Part shown: one piece after another, positions 24 to 28,271 of the stretch
How the letters are laid out: every line of letters starts with the position of its first letter
Numbering within the stretch: the first letter of the stretch is position 1
Assembly (NCBI RefSeq): GCF_044324875.1
Contig: NZ_CP172186.1
Length of the DNA: 64,000 nucleotides
Source: Escherichia coli
GTDB taxonomy: Bacteria; Pseudomonadota; Gammaproteobacteria; Enterobacterales; Enterobacteriaceae
Reading direction: 5' to 3' (one strand)
Notes under the pieces: generated by a model
What the model was told of the DNA's origin: nothing
Seen by the model: the letters and a program-made list of their open reading frames with translations, nothing else
Database searches by the model: none
Program-made: the position numbers and the translations under genes

Positions 24-914
24 TCAGGCTGCCAGATCATCGTTTCCGATGGAAGCATAATAAGCTTTTTCTGCTTCTGCCGGTGGGATATGGCCCAGCC
101 TTTCCAGCAATCGTCGATTGTTATACCAGTCCACCCACGTGAGTGTGGCCAGCTCCACTTCTGTCCGGTTTTTCCAGCTCTTACGGTGTATTACCTCCGC
201 TTTGTAAAGGCCATTGATGCTCTCCGCCATCGCGTTGTCATACGAGTCACCAGTACTTCCTGTTGATGCCAGTAATCCGGCTTCCTTAAGCCGCTGTGTG
301 TAGGCCAGCGATACATACTGAGAACCTTTATCACTGTGATGGACTGTGCCGGACGGTCGACGGGCCCATAACGCCTGCTCCAGAGCATCCAGCACGAATG
401 TCGTTTCCATAGACGATGAGACCCGCCACCCCACGATGTATCCGGCAAACACATCAATGATGAACGCCACATAGACGACCCCCTGCCATGTGCTGACGTA
501 AGTAAAATCAGCCACCCACAACTGGTCAGGACGTTCTGCCACAAACTGACGGTTTACGCGGTCGCCTGCGGCAACGGCTTTCCGGCTGACGGTAGTGCGG
601 ACCTTTTTACCCCGGAGAACACCGGCAAGTCCCATAACCGCCATGAGGCGCGCCACTGTACATCTGGCTACCCTGATTCCTTCCCGTAACAACTGACGCC
701 AGACTTTACGCACACCGTATACCTGATGATTCCCATCGTATACGCGCAGTATCTCTTTCTTCAGCCAGTCATCGCGCTGCGCACGGGCACTGCGTTTATA
801 AGGATGATGTCGCTGTTGCTGACAGTGGTAATACGTTGACGGGGCAATATGTAGTTCACTGCATACCGGTCCGACCCCGTACAGCTTACGCAGCTTATCC
901 AGCAGTGGCATCAC
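24..914 (-). CDS. IS3-family transposase OrfB (DDE integrase core)
   Basis: 296-aa ORF, one substitution relative to 25472-26362; HSDKGSQY...YDNAMAES motif. Confidence 0.9.
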
Positions 915-1163
915 TTTTTCCAGAGGCGGTCGAACTCCGCCTTCGCAAAATAAGCGGAAGCCTGGCGAAGGATATCGTTACTGCGGCGCAGTTCACGATT
1001 TTCACGTTCCAGCTCTTTCAGACGCTGACGTTCAGCGGTGGTGAGCCCGCCATCACCGCCTCCGGTATCCCGCTCATGCTGGCGTACCCAGACACGCAGG
1101 GTCTCTGGCGTACAGCCAATCTTTGGAGCAATGGAACAAATTGCCGCCCACTGTGAGTCATAT
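911..1163 (-). pseudogene. 5'-truncated orfA of the IS629-like element
   Basis: Reverse complement matches the 3' two-thirds of orfA 25149-25475; N-terminal coding sequence absent. Confidence 0.7.
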
Positions 1164-2784: not shown

Positions 2785-3132
2785 TTATATGCGGATTCCA
2801 GCGCGTTCCGTTCGTTTCGGGTGCTTCCAGTTGATACCTTCAAGAAGCATGGATAACTGAGCCGGAGTAAGGTGCACCTTGCCGTCACGGGTGACTGGCC
2901 AGACGAAGCGGCCCCGCTCCAGGCGTTTGGTGAAGAGGCACAGTCCGTCACTGTCAGCCCACAACACTTTTATCTGGTCACCCCGGCGTCCGCGGAAGAT
3001 GAACAGGTGTCCGGAGAACGGGTCATCCTTCAGGACGTTCTGAACTTTTGATGCCAGGCCGTTAAAGCCATTTCGCATATCGGTGATACCTGCAACCAGC
3101 CAGATACGCGAACCTGCAGGGAGAGATATCAT
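2785..3132 (-). CDS. tnpB: IS66-family Orf2 (TnpB)
   Basis: 115 aa, typical IS66 Orf2 size, start/stop coupled to neighbours. Confidence 0.9.
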   Translation of the reverse strand: MISLPAGSRIWLVAGITDMRNGFNGLASKVQNVLKDDPFSGHLFIFRGRRGDQIKVLWADSDGLCLFTKRLERGRFVWPVTRDGKVHLTPAQLSMLLEGINWKHPKRTERAGIRI

Positions 3133-3809
3133 CAGTGGCTGCTCCCTTTTATTTCGCGGATAAGTGTCTGTAATAACGCCGGCGTCAGTTTACCTTTAAG
3201 CCTGAGAGTTCCGGCCGGCAGAACCAGCTCACAACACAGACTGTCGGACGGTGTATTTATCTGCTCTGGTTCCTGTGCGGGGGCCGGGATTTTATTATCC
3301 GGCTCCGGCGTTAACGTCACGGGAAGCAGTGCCGGCATATTTTTTCCGGAAGGCAGCAGGCCACCTTTCCGGTATTGATGGCGCCAGTTGAAGAGCAGGT
3401 TATCGTTGATTCCGTTTTCCCGGGCGATCTGCGCCACACAGGCTCCGGGCTGCAGTGACTGCTCCACTAAGGCGATTTTAAACTCATAAGGGAAGTTGGG
3501 CCGCCGGGGACGTTTTTTTACCACGGGGGCTTCGGATATAACGGTGCTTTCAGGACGTACGACTGGTACCGTGGAAAATTGTCCGTAAAGGCAGGCATCA
3601 AGTTCCTGCTCCGACATGCCTGCGGGCAAAGGCCACGAAAGGCCAGCTCTCCGAAAGCGCACGAACATACTACAAACTGTTGATTTTGGTACACCCAGGC
3701 GACGCCCGGCCACAACCCGGGGTAAATGTTCTTCAAAGTGAAGACGTAAAGCTTCAGTGATCCAGGTCCGGTGTTTCATACGATAGTGTCCATTAAAAAT
3801 GATGGACAT
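3132..3809 (-). CDS. IS66-family accessory protein Orf1 (TnpA-like) with N-terminal HTH
   Basis: C-terminal half resembles IS66 Orf1 (PRRPNFPYEFKIALVEQ...); N-terminal part has HTH and an LSWPLPA motif also seen in IS21-type IstA. Confidence 0.6.
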   Translation of the reverse strand: MSIIFNGHYRMKHRTWITEALRLHFEEHLPRVVAGRRLGVPKSTVCSMFVRFRRAGLSWPLPAGMSEQELDACLYGQFSTVPVVRPESTVISEAPVVKKRPRRPNFPYEFKIALVEQSLQPGACVAQIARENGINDNLLFNWRHQYRKGGLLPSGKNMPALLPVTLTPEPDNKIPAPAQEPEQINTPSDSLCCELVLPAGTLRLKGKLTPALLQTLIREIKGSSH

Positions 3810-20569: not shown

Positions 20570-21147
20570 TCTTTTTTCTCCGTTTTCAGGGGATACAGGA
20601 TGTCTGGTACGCGGTGACTGTGTGATTCCGGCAGCGGAGCCAGCGGGAAACACTGGAAGCGGCGCGTGATCCATCCCTGACGGTTACGGTTATCGATGAG
20701 CGTGAAGGTACGACGCTTCACGCGTTTCAGTGTCGGGGTGTCGCTTTCCATGACCGGCCAGTCTCCGGCTGTGAGTGCCGGTGTGCCGGGGACATCCGGC
20801 CACAGCCAGGTGTTGTCAGACATCAGCGCCGTGAGAGGCGAGGGCAGAAGCCAGTGAATGACATGCTGTATATCAAAAGGCGGTCGCTCCGGCACGTTAA
20901 CCTGCCAGGTGGCCGTTGTTATCAGCGTGCCTGTCTCTCCGGGCAGGGCCAGGCGAATACCACTCATCTCCCCGTCAGCCCGTCTGTCACTGGCAAAAAT
21001 GACCCGGGGATTGGGGGACGGTCGCAGTGTGAAGCAGGCGGACGGCAGGGTGAAGCTGAAACTGTCACCGTCCACGCGCAGCGTTTTCAGGAAGACCTGT
21101 CCCCGTGCAGGACGCCGGCAGCGGGGAGTGATGTGTATGCTGTACAT
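20527..21147 (-). CDS. traV: TraV
   Basis: 206 aa, stop/start coupled to traU; assigned by synteny. Confidence 0.5.
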   Translation of the reverse strand: MYSIHITPRCRRPARGQVFLKTLRVDGDSFSFTLPSACFTLRPSPNPRVIFASDRRADGEMSGIRLALPGETGTLITTATWQVNVPERPPFDIQHVIHWLLPSPLTALMSDNTWLWPDVPGTPALTAGDWPVMESDTPTLKRVKRRTFTLIDNRNRQGWITRRFQCFPLAPLPESHSHRVPDILYPLKTEKKECKDNQQPHCLHSW

Positions 21148-24100
21148 CAGAGGTGATATCCCTGCTTACGGATGAGTTCCGCAGCCAGATCATGGATGAC
21201 GTTTTCACTGTCATGTGTACGGGCGCGGTGTTCTATCAGTGAGGTGGCTGAACCACGGGGAAAGTTTTCTGCCAGGATCTGGCGTGCCCGCAGTGACCCG
21301 AGCTCCTGCGTCAGCGCACGTCTCAGGGCGCTGTCTTTGGGTGAGGAATTCAGAGCCCACAGCTCCAGTGGACCGAGAGTGAATTTCAGGATCCGGGCCA
21401 GCGTACCGTTTTTTACACGGAACACAGCCAGTACCGGGACACCGCTGCCATCCGGTGCAGCCCCTTCCGGCATTTTCAGAAAGCGCCGCAGGGTGACTTC
21501 AGGGACACCAAAATTATCCCGCAGAAACGGAATTTCGTCAGGGCGGTAACGCAGCAACCAGAGGGTGTTGGCGGATTTGAGAACTGCCGGTGGATAGTCC
21601 TGCAGTAGCTGGGTGCTCAGCACTGTGCGTATCCCGAACTTACGCTGCTCCAGCTCCTGGGTGTCCAGGGCTTCCCAGATGAAGTTGATCCCTTTTGCAT
21701 TGTGCAGTTCGTCATAGACTTTGGTCTTGACCTCCTGATCAAGCTGTTCAATGCGGCGGAAAATCACCTCATGGTAGCGTGGGTCGAGATTTTTCCGTAT
21801 TTCCTCCTGATACTGCGGCAGGACAAAATCCCCGCCGGCGATTTGTCCTGCCAGCAGGTACATGATGCCGGTGCGCAGACGCCCGGCAGGTGTCTTGTCA
21901 CCGGCCACATTGTTCAGATCAACGGCCACAACGCGGGTGTCGGGGCTGAGCATAAACCGGGTACAGCCGGACATCATCGGGTAGTCACTGTGTCCCTGAT
22001 CGAGGGCACGGCGGATGTAGTCCAGTAACAATTCTGCTGAGTTATCGCGCTGAACTGTGCCGAACACATCCCGGATGGATGGCTGTCCCAGCAGGGCGGA
22101 CATTTCAGCCAGCAGGGGCATGGCCTGGTAGTGTGCCCGCTGGGCTGCGGGGATATTGCCAGCCATATGCAGCATGTCCCTGATTTCAAACCAGGTGGCA
22201 GCATTCCACCATCCAGAGTCATGTTGTTCTGCGATGCCACTCTCTTCCAGGGCGAGATCCACAAGGGGCTCTGTTCCTGCACGGTACAGTCTGGGGTTGT
22301 TTTCGCCATACTCCCTGAAGGCCAGATCCACCAGGTTGCTTATGATTTGCCGGGTGTCACCGGGATTACAGGGCTGACCGGTGCCGGTATCCACGCACAG
22401 TGCGCAGAGTACAGATACCATGAAGTTCTTTTCCGGGGTGGCGGGTTTTTTAGCACCGTACATCACATCAAACAGGTTACGGGTGTGTTCCGGATCATTG
22501 CTCAGAATGATCCCCACGGCTTCGTCCTTTCTCTGCTCCGGCAGGCTGTCACGGATAAGCTGTACCAGTCCCTGTGCACTGAATCCCTTGTCGATATAGG
22601 CAATGAAAGGCAGGTTCTTCTGGGCTGAGGCTATCTGGATCTCCGACAGTGCGTTGATGAGTACCGATTTGCCCAGACCGGGTGCGCCGGGCGTCAGTTC
22701 CGTGTGCTTGTTCTGTTGTGACGATGCCAGTGCGACCTCCCATGCAGAGCCGTCCTCGGTGTGCATCATCAGATTTCCCTGTCCCCGCCAGACAGAGCCT
22801 GCCCTGTTCAGGGGAAACAGGGAAAGGGCGTGTGAAAGGGGCGGGTAAAGGGGGATCGGGCCGGAGCTGTGGGAGGCTGCCAGAACCGTGTTCACCCAGG
22901 CACGTCTCGGATCACCGAAGGTGGTGGTGGTGCCGCATACCCCCCAGCCTTCCAGCGCAGATTTCAGGAGAGCCTGGTTACGGGTACAGACTTCCCGGCT
23001 GTTTCCCCATGTGGTGGCAACAATGGTCATGATACAGACCGGATCATGTTTGTTGATGTCATTCAGCATCATCACCGAGTCATACATGGGCCGGAGAGGG
23101 GAAATAAAGCTGCTGTAGGTTAGCAGGGTTTTCTTGACTCCAAGCGCCTTCATGCCGCCGGGCATCAGATCCATCCGGATACGCCAGGGGATTGCGCGGG
23201 GCACATCCCTGACCAGCTGGTTGAATGTCCGCAGATTCTGGGGTGGCAGGGTAATGGCGACCATACCGTGCCAGAGGTCACCGGCCTTTATCAGGCTGCC
23301 GTGTGTTTCAGGCTGTGTGGTGAATAACTGCAGATTCAGCGACGGTGCGTGGAATACAGAGGTATCCTCGCCCTGTCGCCAGCCGGCAGGACGGGCATCT
23401 TCAGGCAGATGAGGCTGCCATACTGCAGGTGTGCTGTTGCGCTCCAGTTGACGGCGGATTTCCCGTCCCACTTCATGAATATCCATCAGGCGAACCAGCA
23501 GACCATCAGAATCATGTGTCAGGGCCTGCTCCAGCGTGTCCAGAAAGGCGTCATGCCGTATTTTGAGTGCGGAAAGTGTCCAGCGCCATGGATCCTGCGC
23601 AAATCGGGCTGGCGGAGCGTGTTCAGCGAGTTTCCTGATACGGGTCTGGTGGTCCTTGCGATCGGTCCGGCTCAGCAGTTCTTCAGAGCTCCAGACGGTC
23701 AGCCAGCAGCGTTCCCGGACAAGCCAGGGGGTGAGGGTGGTGACTTTTTCATCCAGAACGTCCTGAAGCAGGATCCCCGTACGTGCGATGGATTTTCGCT
23801 GGGGTAAGAGCATGGCTTCGATTTCATCCCTTCCACGCTCCGGATCGCGTTCGAAAACAAAACTGATTTTGTGACCGGTGTTTTTATAGGCAGTGTTCAT
23901 TCGCTCTGCCAGCGCTGTAATCAGTGATTCCAGTGTGCCGGGGGCTGTCAGGTCCGGGTTTTCATCCATTTCTTTCAGGGCACCGCTGATTTCAAAGACG
24001 GAAAGGTAATACCCCTGTTTTGTGGTGGCAATGTAGGGGGCTTTCAGCCAGGGGCGGCGTTCGCGGTCCTGTTGGTCCAGACCGATGACGGTGTGCAGAT

Positions 24101-24203
24101 CACAGTAATCGGGGAAGAATGCGGAAACGGAATACCGTGACAGGGTACTGATACAGTCTTCAATGGCAAAAATAATGCGGTTGATATTCATGGCATGGAG
24201 CAC
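21147..24203 (-). CDS. traU: TraU ATPase (DotO/IcmB-like, VirB4-class)
   Basis: 1018 aa, Walker A GAPGLGKS; size matches IncI1 TraU. Confidence 0.85.
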   Translation of the reverse strand: MLHAMNINRIIFAIEDCISTLSRYSVSAFFPDYCDLHTVIGLDQQDRERRPWLKAPYIATTKQGYYLSVFEISGALKEMDENPDLTAPGTLESLITALAERMNTAYKNTGHKISFVFERDPERGRDEIEAMLLPQRKSIARTGILLQDVLDEKVTTLTPWLVRERCWLTVWSSEELLSRTDRKDHQTRIRKLAEHAPPARFAQDPWRWTLSALKIRHDAFLDTLEQALTHDSDGLLVRLMDIHEVGREIRRQLERNSTPAVWQPHLPEDARPAGWRQGEDTSVFHAPSLNLQLFTTQPETHGSLIKAGDLWHGMVAITLPPQNLRTFNQLVRDVPRAIPWRIRMDLMPGGMKALGVKKTLLTYSSFISPLRPMYDSVMMLNDINKHDPVCIMTIVATTWGNSREVCTRNQALLKSALEGWGVCGTTTTFGDPRRAWVNTVLAASHSSGPIPLYPPLSHALSLFPLNRAGSVWRGQGNLMMHTEDGSAWEVALASSQQNKHTELTPGAPGLGKSVLINALSEIQIASAQKNLPFIAYIDKGFSAQGLVQLIRDSLPEQRKDEAVGIILSNDPEHTRNLFDVMYGAKKPATPEKNFMVSVLCALCVDTGTGQPCNPGDTRQIISNLVDLAFREYGENNPRLYRAGTEPLVDLALEESGIAEQHDSGWWNAATWFEIRDMLHMAGNIPAAQRAHYQAMPLLAEMSALLGQPSIRDVFGTVQRDNSAELLLDYIRRALDQGHSDYPMMSGCTRFMLSPDTRVVAVDLNNVAGDKTPAGRLRTGIMYLLAGQIAGGDFVLPQYQEEIRKNLDPRYHEVIFRRIEQLDQEVKTKVYDELHNAKGINFIWEALDTQELEQRKFGIRTVLSTQLLQDYPPAVLKSANTLWLLRYRPDEIPFLRDNFGVPEVTLRRFLKMPEGAAPDGSGVPVLAVFRVKNGTLARILKFTLGPLELWALNSSPKDSALRRALTQELGSLRARQILAENFPRGSATSLIEHRARTHDSENVIHDLAAELIRKQGYHL

Positions 24204-24526: not shown

Positions 24527-25120
<594 letters not shown>

Positions 25121-25148
25121 TAAACTCCCTGAGAAAGAGGTAAACAGA

Positions 25149-25475
25149 ATGACTAAAAATACTCGTTTTTCCCCCGAAGTCCGTCAGAGGGCGATTCGTA
25201 TGGTTCTGGAAAGTCAGGGCGAATATGACTCACAGTGGGCGGCAATTTGTTCCATTGCCCCAAAGATTGGCTGTACACCGGAGACTCTGCGTGTCTGGGT
25301 ACGCCAGCATGAGCGGGATACCGGAGGCGGTGATGGCGGGCTCACCACCGCTGAACGTCAGCGTCTGAAAGAGCTGGAACGTGAAAATCGTGAACTGCGC
25401 CGCAGTAACGATATCCTTCGCCAGGCTTCCGCTTATTTTGCGAAGGCGGAGTTCGACCGCCTCTGGAAAAAGTGA
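25149..25475 (+). CDS. IS3-family transposase OrfA (HTH)
   Basis: 108 aa [19 protein letters not shown]..., leucine-zipper region; overlaps orfB start. Confidence 0.9.
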
Positions 25476-26362
25476 TGCCACTGCTGGATAAGCTGCGTAA
25501 GCTGTACGGGGTCGGACCGGTATGCAGTGAACTACATATTGCCCCGTCAACGTATTACCACTGTCAGCAACAGCGACATCATCCTGATAAACGCAGTGCC
25601 CGTGCGCAGCGCGATGACTGGCTGAAGAAAGAGATACTGCGCGTATACGATGGGAATCATCAGGTATACGGTGTGCGTAAAGTCTGGCGTCAGTTGTTAC
25701 GGGAAGGAATCAGGGTAGCCAGATGTACAGTGGCGCGCCTCATGGCGGTTATGGGACTTGCCGGTGTTCTCCGGGGTAAAAAGGTCCGCACTACCGTCAG
25801 CCGGAAAGCCGTTGCCGCAGGCGACCGCGTAAACCGTCAGTTTGTGGCAGAACGTCCTGACCAGTTGTGGGTGGCTGATTTTACTTACGTCAGCACATGG
25901 CAGGGGGTCGTCTATGTGGCGTTCATCATTGATGTGTTTGCCGGATACATCGTGGGGTGGCGGGTCTCATCGTCTATGGAAACGACATTCGTGCTGGATG
26001 CTCTGGAGCAGGCGTTATGGGCCCGTCGACCGTCCGGCACAGTCCATCACAGTGATAAAGGTTCTCAGTATGTATCGCTGGCCTACACACAGCGGCTTAA
26101 GGAAGCCGGATTACTGGCATCAACAGGAAGTACTGGTGACTCGTATGACAACGCGATGGCGGAGAGCATCAATGGCCTTTACAAAGCGGAGGTAATACAC
26201 CGTAAGAGCTGGAAAAACCGGACAGAAGTGGAGCTGGCCACACTCACGTGGGTGGACTGGTATAACAATCGACGATTGCTGGAAAGGCTGGGCCATATCC
26301 CACCGGCAGAAGCAGAAAAAGCTTATTATGCTTCCATCGGAAACGATGATCTGGCAGCCTGA
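25472..26362 (+). CDS. IS3-family transposase OrfB (DDE)
   Basis: 296 aa, rve domain; made as OrfAB fusion by -1 frameshift in this family. Confidence 0.9.
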
Positions 26363-26405
26363 GTTCACAGATAAAACACTCTCCAGGAAACCCGGGGCGG
26401 TTCAA

Positions 26406-28271
26406 AACGTCAGCCACATCACAAAATGGTAGCTGTTCATAGAATCGCGTCTCTTTTGCCTTATTACGATTGACAACGGGTTTATGCCAAGTCAGCTTCT
26501 GCGTTTCTCTATCGTATATCACATGCTTCAACTTTCCCTGTTTTAGCTCGCGGTTGAATGCTTTCCATTGTCGATGCAGTTCAGACTCCAACTTCTTTAG
26601 TTGTGTTTTGATCGGCTTGTGCAAAAATGGGATATTCATTTCAGCCAGCACCGTCGCCTTTTTTCCTTCTGGTACCAGTTCATCAGAAAGATGACGATGA
26701 CGGAGACTGTTATTGAGGTGGAATTCACCTGCCTGAAAGCGTTTTCTAATCTGTCGGTAGAGCCAGAACTCATAGCGCCCAGCATTCAGTCCAATGACTT
26801 CGCCACTCTCATCAAACTCTAGCAAATACGGGCGTAATCGTTTGGGTAATGTTCCCTTTGGGCATTCTGTTAGTGGTCGCTGCGAAAGCGTCTGCTTTTT
26901 ACTGAATACCACCTTAAGCCAGTTCATGGCTTTTACCCACGGACTATCGCTGACTACACTGTTGAGGTCGAGCGACAGAAATAATGGTCGAAGGTGACGC
27001 CGGATTAATCCGGTCATACCATCGACAGCTTGCCACTGTAATGCCAGTTTGCTGACGGGTTTTACGCTCATACGCTGAGCGGTGGTTTGCAGTGTCTCCC
27101 GTGGCATAATCTTCCACGCTCTACGGCGCACTTCGCCAAAGGTGGTAAAGTCTGAGACACTATCATCAACATAAAGAGACAGCAGTCGTCCGATCTTAGG
27201 CGTTTCACGCCGGTGTTTTTCTTGAACGTCAACCAGAAGCTGCTTAGCTACACGGCGACTCTCATCCTCGATCTTTTTCAAATGGAAAAACATGGCTTCC
27301 ACCAAGTTATCGCTGAACTGACGATAACGAACCCATGCATAACACAGCAGATAAAGACGCGCCTGCTCGGGTTTCAGTTGACGCAGATCGTAAACGGTAT
27401 AGAAATTTGCCAGACTCGCGTAGTACAACAGGTTTTGCTGAGAAATATTCAGTGTAGGTAAAATATTGCAGGCTTTATGGTGCAGTGCTTCCAAAATGGT
27501 TCGTTTTTCCCTTTCTTGGGTCATCTGTCGCCATCCGAAGTCTCGGGCATCTTGCCTGAGAATGGCAAGGCGGGAAAGAGTTTCATCGCGTTCAATCAGC
27601 TTGTTCAAATGAGCAATAGTCGCGTCATCGAGTTGTTCCGTTAAAATATGTCCTAATCTTTGTCTTTCATTAGAAAGGACTTTGCTGACTAGCTCTTGAA
27701 GTGTGGTATAGCCGGGTCTGATAATTTTGTTCTCGTTGAGCCAGATAATTAGCTCTGTGGCAACAAATCCGGGAGTGATATCGCGGTGAACAATATGGAC
27801 AGCTTGTTGTTCAACCAATGAAGACAATGCTGAGGACCATGGACGATAATTATACAATTTGAATATTTTTTCTCGCTGAGCATAGCGTTCATATTTAGAG
27901 GGCGATTGAAGTGGAATTGACTCTCCAGGAAAATAACGACTCAGGATAAAGTTGCAGTCGTCCAAGACATCATGCCAATTGAAATGAAAAAACAGACTTT
28001 TAGCTTTAAAGTAAGCAATCTGCAGAATGCAACAAAGCTGCGCATGAAGCCCTTTTCGACTGTTGACTAACGCTAACTCCGATTCATCCAGAACCAAAAA
28101 CTCTAATTGTTGTGCATCATCGAAATCAGGGAGGCCATAGAGAGCTTCTTGTTCAGCATTACTTAATACCGCTAGTCGTTCACTTTTACCAGCGGCTTTA
28201 CCACCACTTACCATCTTGCCCCCCGAAATTAATGTCCGTAAGAGGATCGTTAAGCGGACAGTAATAACCAC
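26406..28271 (-). pseudogene. tnpA: Tn3-family transposase tnpA, N-terminal ~620 codons (interrupted, internal deletion)
   Basis: Tn3-type TnpA N-terminal region; ORF-track frame runs into IS629; combined fragments shorter than a ~1000-aa TnpA. Confidence 0.8.

Follow-up and report, generated by a model that had tools for sequence, protein, structure and literature searches.

The orfA-orfB junction of an IS629-type element in Escherichia coli and its probable U-run and ALIL pseudoknot frameshift cassette

The orfA-orfB junction of a complete IS629-type insertion sequence in Escherichia coli is probably an example of the programmed −1 cassette already described for IS629/IS3411, a ribosomal frameshift signal in which a U-run is followed by an ALIL pseudoknot. 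The cassette is already represented in Rfam (RF01497), in RefSeq features, and in the IS629/IS3411 literature, and its occurrence here has little significance beyond correct annotation. We regard the U-run as the supported shift site because of the ALIL match, the 5-nt spacer, the conservation of U_UUY, the covariation in the structure, and the NCBI record of the corresponding fusion protein; one point against it is the far lower intrinsic strength of the U_UUU tetramer compared with A_AAG. The prominent A-rich motif with which orfA ends is distinct from the conserved site that is tied to the structure, and scanners that seek only A_AAG, by analogy with IS3 and IS911, misplace the junction 33 nt downstream and get 11 residues wrong.

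The element, its reading frames, and its surroundings

The element (25095-26404, plus strand; 1310 bp) is a complete insertion sequence of the IS629/IS3411/IS1203 type, within the IS3 family, and lies in a window of 64,000 nt, the whole stretch of DNA that was analysed. Aligned over 1310/1310 nt, it shares 99.9% identity with many E. coli copies in RefSeq that bear the annotation "IS3 family transposase," and the 90% cluster-mates of its fusion protein are named "IS3-like element IS629 family transposase" or "IS629 transposase OrfB." Placement in the IS629 group, whose members are ∼1310 bp long and share 95% or more of their nucleotides with the named elements, was made through these RefSeq copies and cluster-mate names, and the earlier note was correct in calling this an IS629-like copy. 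OrfB is 95.6% identical to IS1203-named copies, and both IS1203 and IS3411 are isoforms of IS629 (PMC3271280). The terminal inverted repeats match at 23 of their first 25 positions (TGAACCGCCCCGGG... at 25095 and ...CCCGGGGCGGTTCA at 26404), and the ends are of the imperfect 5′-TG...CA-3′ type that the IS3 family requires. IS629 is among the most abundant insertion sequences of E. coli and Shigella, with matches in 4259 of 5426 complete genomes.

Two consecutive open reading frames are present in the typical IS3 family layout, in which orfB overlaps part of orfA and is read in the −1 frame. The first, orfA (25149-25475, plus strand), codes for 108 aa with an HTH_Tnp_1 domain and ends at TGA (25473-75); Pfam PF01527 spans residues 1-87 of the fusion protein. 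The orfB frame (25409-26362, plus strand) is shifted by −1 from that of orfA and encodes the rve/DDE catalytic domain; it opens at 25409, immediately after a TAA at 25406-08, such that the two frames overlap by 67 nt. Candidate independent starts for orfB are GTG at 25472 and ATG at 25475, both overlapping the orfA stop codon (GUGAUG). Pfam matches in the fusion and orfB are HTH_Tnp_1, HTH_21, rve, rve_2, and rve_3, and the fusion scores 363.7 bits against NCBIfam NF033516 (IS3 family transposase; cut-off, 160), covering profile positions 1-369/369.

The window contains a second, truncated IS629 copy on the minus strand (1-1163; blastn identity 99.57%, IS positions 129-1291), which has 5 substitutions, is in inverted orientation, and extends past the window start. 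This copy carries a frameshift cassette of identical sequence (840-956, minus strand), and an IS66-family element with three minus-strand open reading frames (1194-2765, 2785-3132, and 3132-3809) cuts it at IS position 129. The flanks of the studied element are themselves mobile-element remnants; to the left (24989-25094) is a 35-codon 5′ fragment of an IS21-family istA (NF033546, E 3e-6), and to the right (26405-28271) is a minus-strand Tn3-family tnpA truncated at profile position 564/954. AAAC is present at both ends of the element and looks like the direct target duplication of 3-4 bp usual in the IS3 family, yet the flanks derive from different elements (IS21 type and Tn3 type); the 4-bp repeat may be a coincidence, or an exchange of flanks may have taken place, perhaps through an inversion involving the pair of inverted IS629 copies. 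At E≤0.001, neither Pfam nor NCBIfam yields a match to a 1018-aa open reading frame (21147-24203, minus strand). Its counterpart on the best-matching plasmid, the IncK2/Z plasmid pLH50-c-A (NZ_CP100501.1), is annotated as "ATP-binding protein" and adjoins traW, and the window is therefore assigned to the transfer region of an IncI/K-type conjugative plasmid.

The U-run site and its pseudoknot

The conserved shift site of the cassette, U_UUU(G) or "T4G," is at 25436-25440 (plus strand), where the 0-frame reads TAT TTT GCG, with U_UUU in frame and 33 nt upstream of A_AAG. The only strong match in an Rfam scan is to the ALIL pseudoknot RF01497 (25430-25546, plus strand), which covers model positions 1-117/117 and, at 116.2 bits (E 4e-31), is well above the gathering score of 50. 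Stem-loop 1 (SL1; 25445-25461, plus strand) is the 17-nt hairpin GGCGG-AGUUCGA-CCGCC with its apical loop at 25450-56; it can be extended to 25444-25462, and its ViennaRNA folding energy is −7.5 kcal/mol, or −10.4 kcal/mol with the extension. Stem-loop 2 (SL2; 25507-25546, plus strand) has a 5′ internal loop, UCGGAC (25512-17), that is complementary to GUUCGA in the SL1 loop (25451-56) at 6/6 pairs.

The spacing of these parts agrees with what has been reported for frameshift cassettes. A hairpin that serves a slippery motif is expected 4 to 10 nt from it (PMC4066793), and the 5-nt spacer between U_UUU and SL1 is within this range, whereas A_AAG, being 3′ of SL1, is outside it. In ALIL elements, SL2 is found 44 to 104 nt 3′ of SL1 (PMC5009743), a range that includes the 45-nt gap here (25461 to 25507). 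The ALIL structure was described for IS3411 by Mazauric et al. 2008, as cited in PMC5009743, and stimulation of −1 frameshifting by it in vivo has been reported for IS3411 (PMC5009743). IS3411 also heads a list of insertion sequences ranked by the size of the post-motif structure, a range that begins at 17 nt (PMC4066793); SL1 is exactly 17 nt, equal to this lower end. Neither IS3411 nor IS629 is mentioned in the supplements of PMC4066793.

To avoid circularity, relatives were chosen by the similarity of their OrfB protein, from hits spaced along the ranked output of a tblastn search of plasmids. The 16 loci fetched range from 87% to 46% identity and include enterobacterial copies (Salmonella, Pantoea, and other E. 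coli isoforms including IS1203) as well as copies from Agrobacterium, Sinorhizobium, Rhizobium, a Rhodobacteraceae strain, Azoarcus, Acinetobacter (two), Rhodococcus (three), and Gordonia. Each of the 16 matches ALIL where orfA meets orfB (49 to 122 bits) and has a U_UUY 5 nt ahead of SL1, and in Acinetobacter the U-run is a full canonical U_UUU_UUC heptamer. An in-frame U_UUY occupies the same alignment columns in 18/18 sequences compared, with columns T7, T8, and T9 invariant, although this conservation could partly mirror the conserved Tyr/Phe-Phe of OrfA, because the 33-nt segment between the two sites must simultaneously serve OrfA, the fusion protein, and the RNA fold. The structure is likewise well maintained: with the pseudoknot included, 88.9% of alignment cells are paired, in contrast to 28 to 42% when the pairing partners are slid by 1 to 3 columns. 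The SL1 helix is 84% paired in 17 relatives and the loop-loop helix 94% paired (17 sequences), with the pair of columns 23 and 87 occurring as C-G in nine, U-A in five, and A-U in two. In all relatives the orfA stop also overlaps an orfB-frame start (GUGAUG here, AUGA in Alphaproteobacteria), which suggests that translational coupling for separate OrfB synthesis may be conserved alongside the frameshift.

A change of frame by RNA polymerase, through transcriptional slippage on the A5 or T4 run, has very little to recommend it. Homopolymer runs are indeed present at both sites, but productive transcriptional realignment typically needs runs of 7 or more, and runs of 4 to 5 bases are far too short; a covarying RNA pseudoknot 5 nt after the U-run is, moreover, a hallmark of ribosomal frameshifting.

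Database annotation follows the U-run. In one RefSeq copy, which has a single synonymous base difference, a two-segment CDS equivalent to 25149-26362 is flagged "programmed frameshift," and the stretch corresponding to 25430-25546 is labelled "AL1L pseudoknot." We built both possible 404-aa fusions, which differ only in an 11-residue linker, and looked them up by exact sequence among NCBI proteins. The fusion joined at the U-run (AYF-CEGG junction) is identical to the NCBI protein "MULTISPECIES: IS3 family transposase," seen on 33 contigs, and that joined at A_AAG (...RLWKK-VMPLL...) is absent from the NCBI protein collection by this lookup. Among 123 full-length NCBI proteins fetched in an OrfB homologue search, which covers near-identical enterobacterial copies only, 110 are joined at the U-run and 13 at the orfA end (...WKK-L-MPLL), although the join position in NCBI is an annotation choice and not a measurement. 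Whether a U-run protein reads AYF-C-EGG or AYF-G-EGG is set solely by the base that the annotation re-reads. Current annotation practice thus puts the frameshift site at the U-run.

Public records therefore carry two join conventions, the majority at the U-run and a minority at the orfA end. We considered whether the ...WKK-L-MPLL proteins could be natural in-frame orfAB fusions arising by a 1-nt insertion, but their DNA is ordinary frameshifted sequence and the idea was rejected. The Leu instead reflects an older convention with the shift at the orfA end, in which the annotation join re-reads the T of TGA, and a Leu at this position is biologically impossible.

With the U-run as the shift site, ribosomes translating orfA would decode UUU at 25437-39 (Phe97) with the ALIL pseudoknot at the mRNA entrance. 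A fraction would slip, with tRNA-Phe re-pairing from UUU 25437-39 to UUU 25436-38, the next codon becoming UGC (25439-41), and these ribosomes would read UGC GAA GGC and onward to 26362, yielding the 404-aa OrfA-OrfB fusion transposase. Unshifted ribosomes would reach TGG AAA AAG UGA, where most would terminate and release OrfA (108 aa); re-initiation at the overlapping GUG/AUG (GUGAUG) could possibly give OrfB, and a minority may slip on A_AAG to make a second 404-aa fusion with 11 different residues. The sequence data establish the anatomy, frames, spacing, conservation, and covariation of the cassette; for slippage at either site, and for the proportions involved, we infer from published work on IS3411 and on tetramer motifs.

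The A-rich motif at the end of orfA

The motif GGAAAAAG occurs once in the orfA/orfB overlap, at 25465-25472 (plus strand), and contains an in-frame A_AAG tetramer that is a candidate for a second, lineage-specific −1 site. The earlier note had reported this slippery motif within the overlap, inside 25455-25475, which is confirmed, but its placement at about 25461-25468 is 4 nt too low, those positions reading CTCTGGAA. The orfA frame around the motif is CTC TGG AAA AAG TGA, and A_AAG (25469-72) abuts the UGA stop; it is an in-frame Z_ZZN motif within an "A4G" at 25468-72 and forms a near-heptamer, G_AAA_AAG, rather than a true heptamer. The proposal that the motif directs the programmed −1 frameshift that makes OrfAB holds as far as the overlap, the frame, and the slipperiness of A_AAG are concerned, but the conserved site is U_UUU(G) at 25436-40, outside 25455-25475. 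Alignment with family frameshift windows does reveal the pseudoknot that had been envisaged, although the conserved structure follows the U-run and not A_AAG, and the family reference RF01497, being anchored on the U-run, largely places the site elsewhere than had been proposed.

An in-frame A_AAG is expected by chance with a probability of ∼0.09 (22 in-frame positions in the 67-nt overlap, at the window's own AAAG frequency), and the window composition predicts ∼1.6 in-frame Z_ZZN motifs of all kinds for the overlap, so the presence of this motif is by itself only slightly surprising. Two such motifs, and no more, are in the overlap: U_UUU (25436-39) and A_AAG (25469-72). A third motif, AAAAT at 25384-88, was rejected as a fusion site; it is upstream of the −1-frame stop TAA (25406-08).

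No tetramer shifts more efficiently in E. coli than A_AAG, but tetramers that have no stimulator are barely shifty; with a pseudoknot, the order is A_AAG >> U_UUC > U_UUU (0.26-5.6%), and A_AAG, U_UUC, and U_UUU predominate among the tetramer users of the IS3 family (PMC4066793). At this junction A_AAG is intrinsically a better slippery sequence than U_UUU but is without a correctly placed conserved stimulator. It is unlikely that A_AAG is the principal −1 site making OrfAB, as an analogy with IS3 would have it. Its position in frame and in the overlap, and its standing as by far the best E. coli tetramer, would fit such a role, as would the stop codon immediately after it, since a stop directly 3′ of a shift site is a weak stimulator ("shifty stop"), and the 13 of 123 NCBI proteins joined at the orfA end. 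However, A_AAG is between the two stem-loops, 7 nt past the end of SL1 and 34 nt ahead of SL2, and the conserved pseudoknot, which starts upstream, is therefore not positioned to act on it; the fusion joined there has no NCBI record, and an unstimulated tetramer would barely shift.

The motif is also poorly conserved. In the 16 relatives an A-run before the orfA stop is restricted to Enterobacterales, and A_AAG is found only in the studied isoform, with A_AAA in five enterobacterial relatives (carriers being IS1203, Salmonella, Pantoea, and an E. coli relative at 80%). In the 11/11 non-enterobacterial relatives (Alpha- and Betaproteobacteria, Acinetobacter, and Actinomycetes) the A-run is missing and the pseudoknot is kept, orfA ending instead with, for example, AAA CGA TGA, CAC AAA TAA, or AAC AAG TGA. 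This further argues against A_AAG as the principal site.

A possible stimulator for A_AAG is a hairpin at 25479-25529, closed by the stem CACUGC/GCAGUG (25479-84/25524-29), which begins 6 nt after A_AAG, has a folding energy of −17.5 kcal/mol, and conforms to the published hairpin rule in the studied copy. This speaks for A_AAG as the principal site, but the hairpin is not conserved in the relatives, where it is 45% paired, similar to controls (47.7% when shuffled, 36 to 49% when slid), and is without covariation. We rejected it as an A_AAG stimulator on these grounds, and also since a 6-bp stem is not unlikely by chance within the space searched. No conserved stimulatory structure was found in the relatives 4 to 10 nt downstream of A_AAG. 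The hairpin and the upper stem of SL2 are mutually exclusive, and the 6-bp CACUGC/GCAGUG stem is perfect only in the A_AAG-bearing isoform, with a mismatch in IS1203. One could speculate that an A-to-G change creating A_AAG_UGA, together with the U that completes CACUGC/GCAGUG, made a second, lineage-specific frameshift module whose hairpin competes with ALIL SL2, the alternative folds partitioning ribosomes between two transposase isoforms, but we think this improbable.

The remaining question is whether A_AAG has a role in addition to the U-run. A_AAG is a plausible second frameshift site, and there is roughly an even chance that it contributes a biologically meaningful second product. The stronger proposition, that both sites are used on purpose to give two fusions with different roles, a transposase proper and a helper, falls a little short of even odds in our judgment. 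Work by Chen and Hu from 2006 reportedly identified TTTTG (T4G) and AAAAG (A4G) as −1 signals in IS629, and is said to have described two fusion products with different roles made through them. This pair fits the sequence, because the overlap has just two in-frame slippery motifs, and the products of dual use differ in an 11-residue linker. On the other hand, a conserved stimulator for A_AAG was not found, and the motif is isoform specific, so that any role of its own would have been gained recently and in this lineage alone.

Alternatively, the A-run may be incidental, merely two Lys codons before the orfA stop, with orfB expressed from the U-run shift and GUGAUG re-initiation. We hold this possible but doubtful. 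The chance expectation given above, the want of a conserved stimulator, the loss of the motif in relatives, and the conservation across relatives of the stop/start overlap (UGAUG or AUGA) are all consistent with it; but A_AAG is a ready slippage point for Lys-tRNA(UUU) in E. coli, as is known from the literature, and the 2006 paper of Chen and Hu, to go by its title ("Two frameshift products ... IS629"), indicates that there are two frameshift products.

Comparison with known frameshift systems

The studied copy resembles IS3 in its family, in the −1 arrangement of orfA and orfB, and in having an in-frame A_AAG near the end of orfA. In IS3, however, A_AAG is in a C_CAA_AAG context and is then followed by an H-type pseudoknot, whereas in this IS629 copy the ALIL structure precedes and flanks A_AAG and follows U_UUU.

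With IS911 and dnaX, in which an A_AAA_AAG heptamer is served by an upstream Shine-Dalgarno sequence and a downstream stem-loop, the common feature is an A-rich run on which Lys-tRNA would slip. Upstream of A_AAG here there is also a GGAG (25448-51), considered as a possible stimulator of the Shine-Dalgarno type, but it falls within SL1 at a distance of 17 nt from the tetramer, farther than the optimum of roughly 10 to 14 nt. Unlike IS911 and dnaX, the studied copy has only G_AAA_AAG, with no conserved downstream hairpin.

IS1203 (E. coli O111/O157) is much closer, with an OrfB that is 95 to 96% identical and the same layout of U_UUU, SL1, and SL2; it differs in having A_AAA_UGA for A_AAG_UGA and GCAGCG for GCAGUG in SL2. 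The closest counterpart is the IS3411/IS629 ALIL cassette itself (RF01497), with which the studied copy agrees in the full-length match, the 17-nt SL1, the 5-nt spacer, the loop-loop pairing, and the 45-nt gap. Relative to the RF01497 consensus, the loop-loop helix of the studied isoform has a compensatory change of C-G to U-A and a change of U-A to a U-G wobble, and the upper SL2 stem contains a single C-A mismatch; the structures are otherwise the same.
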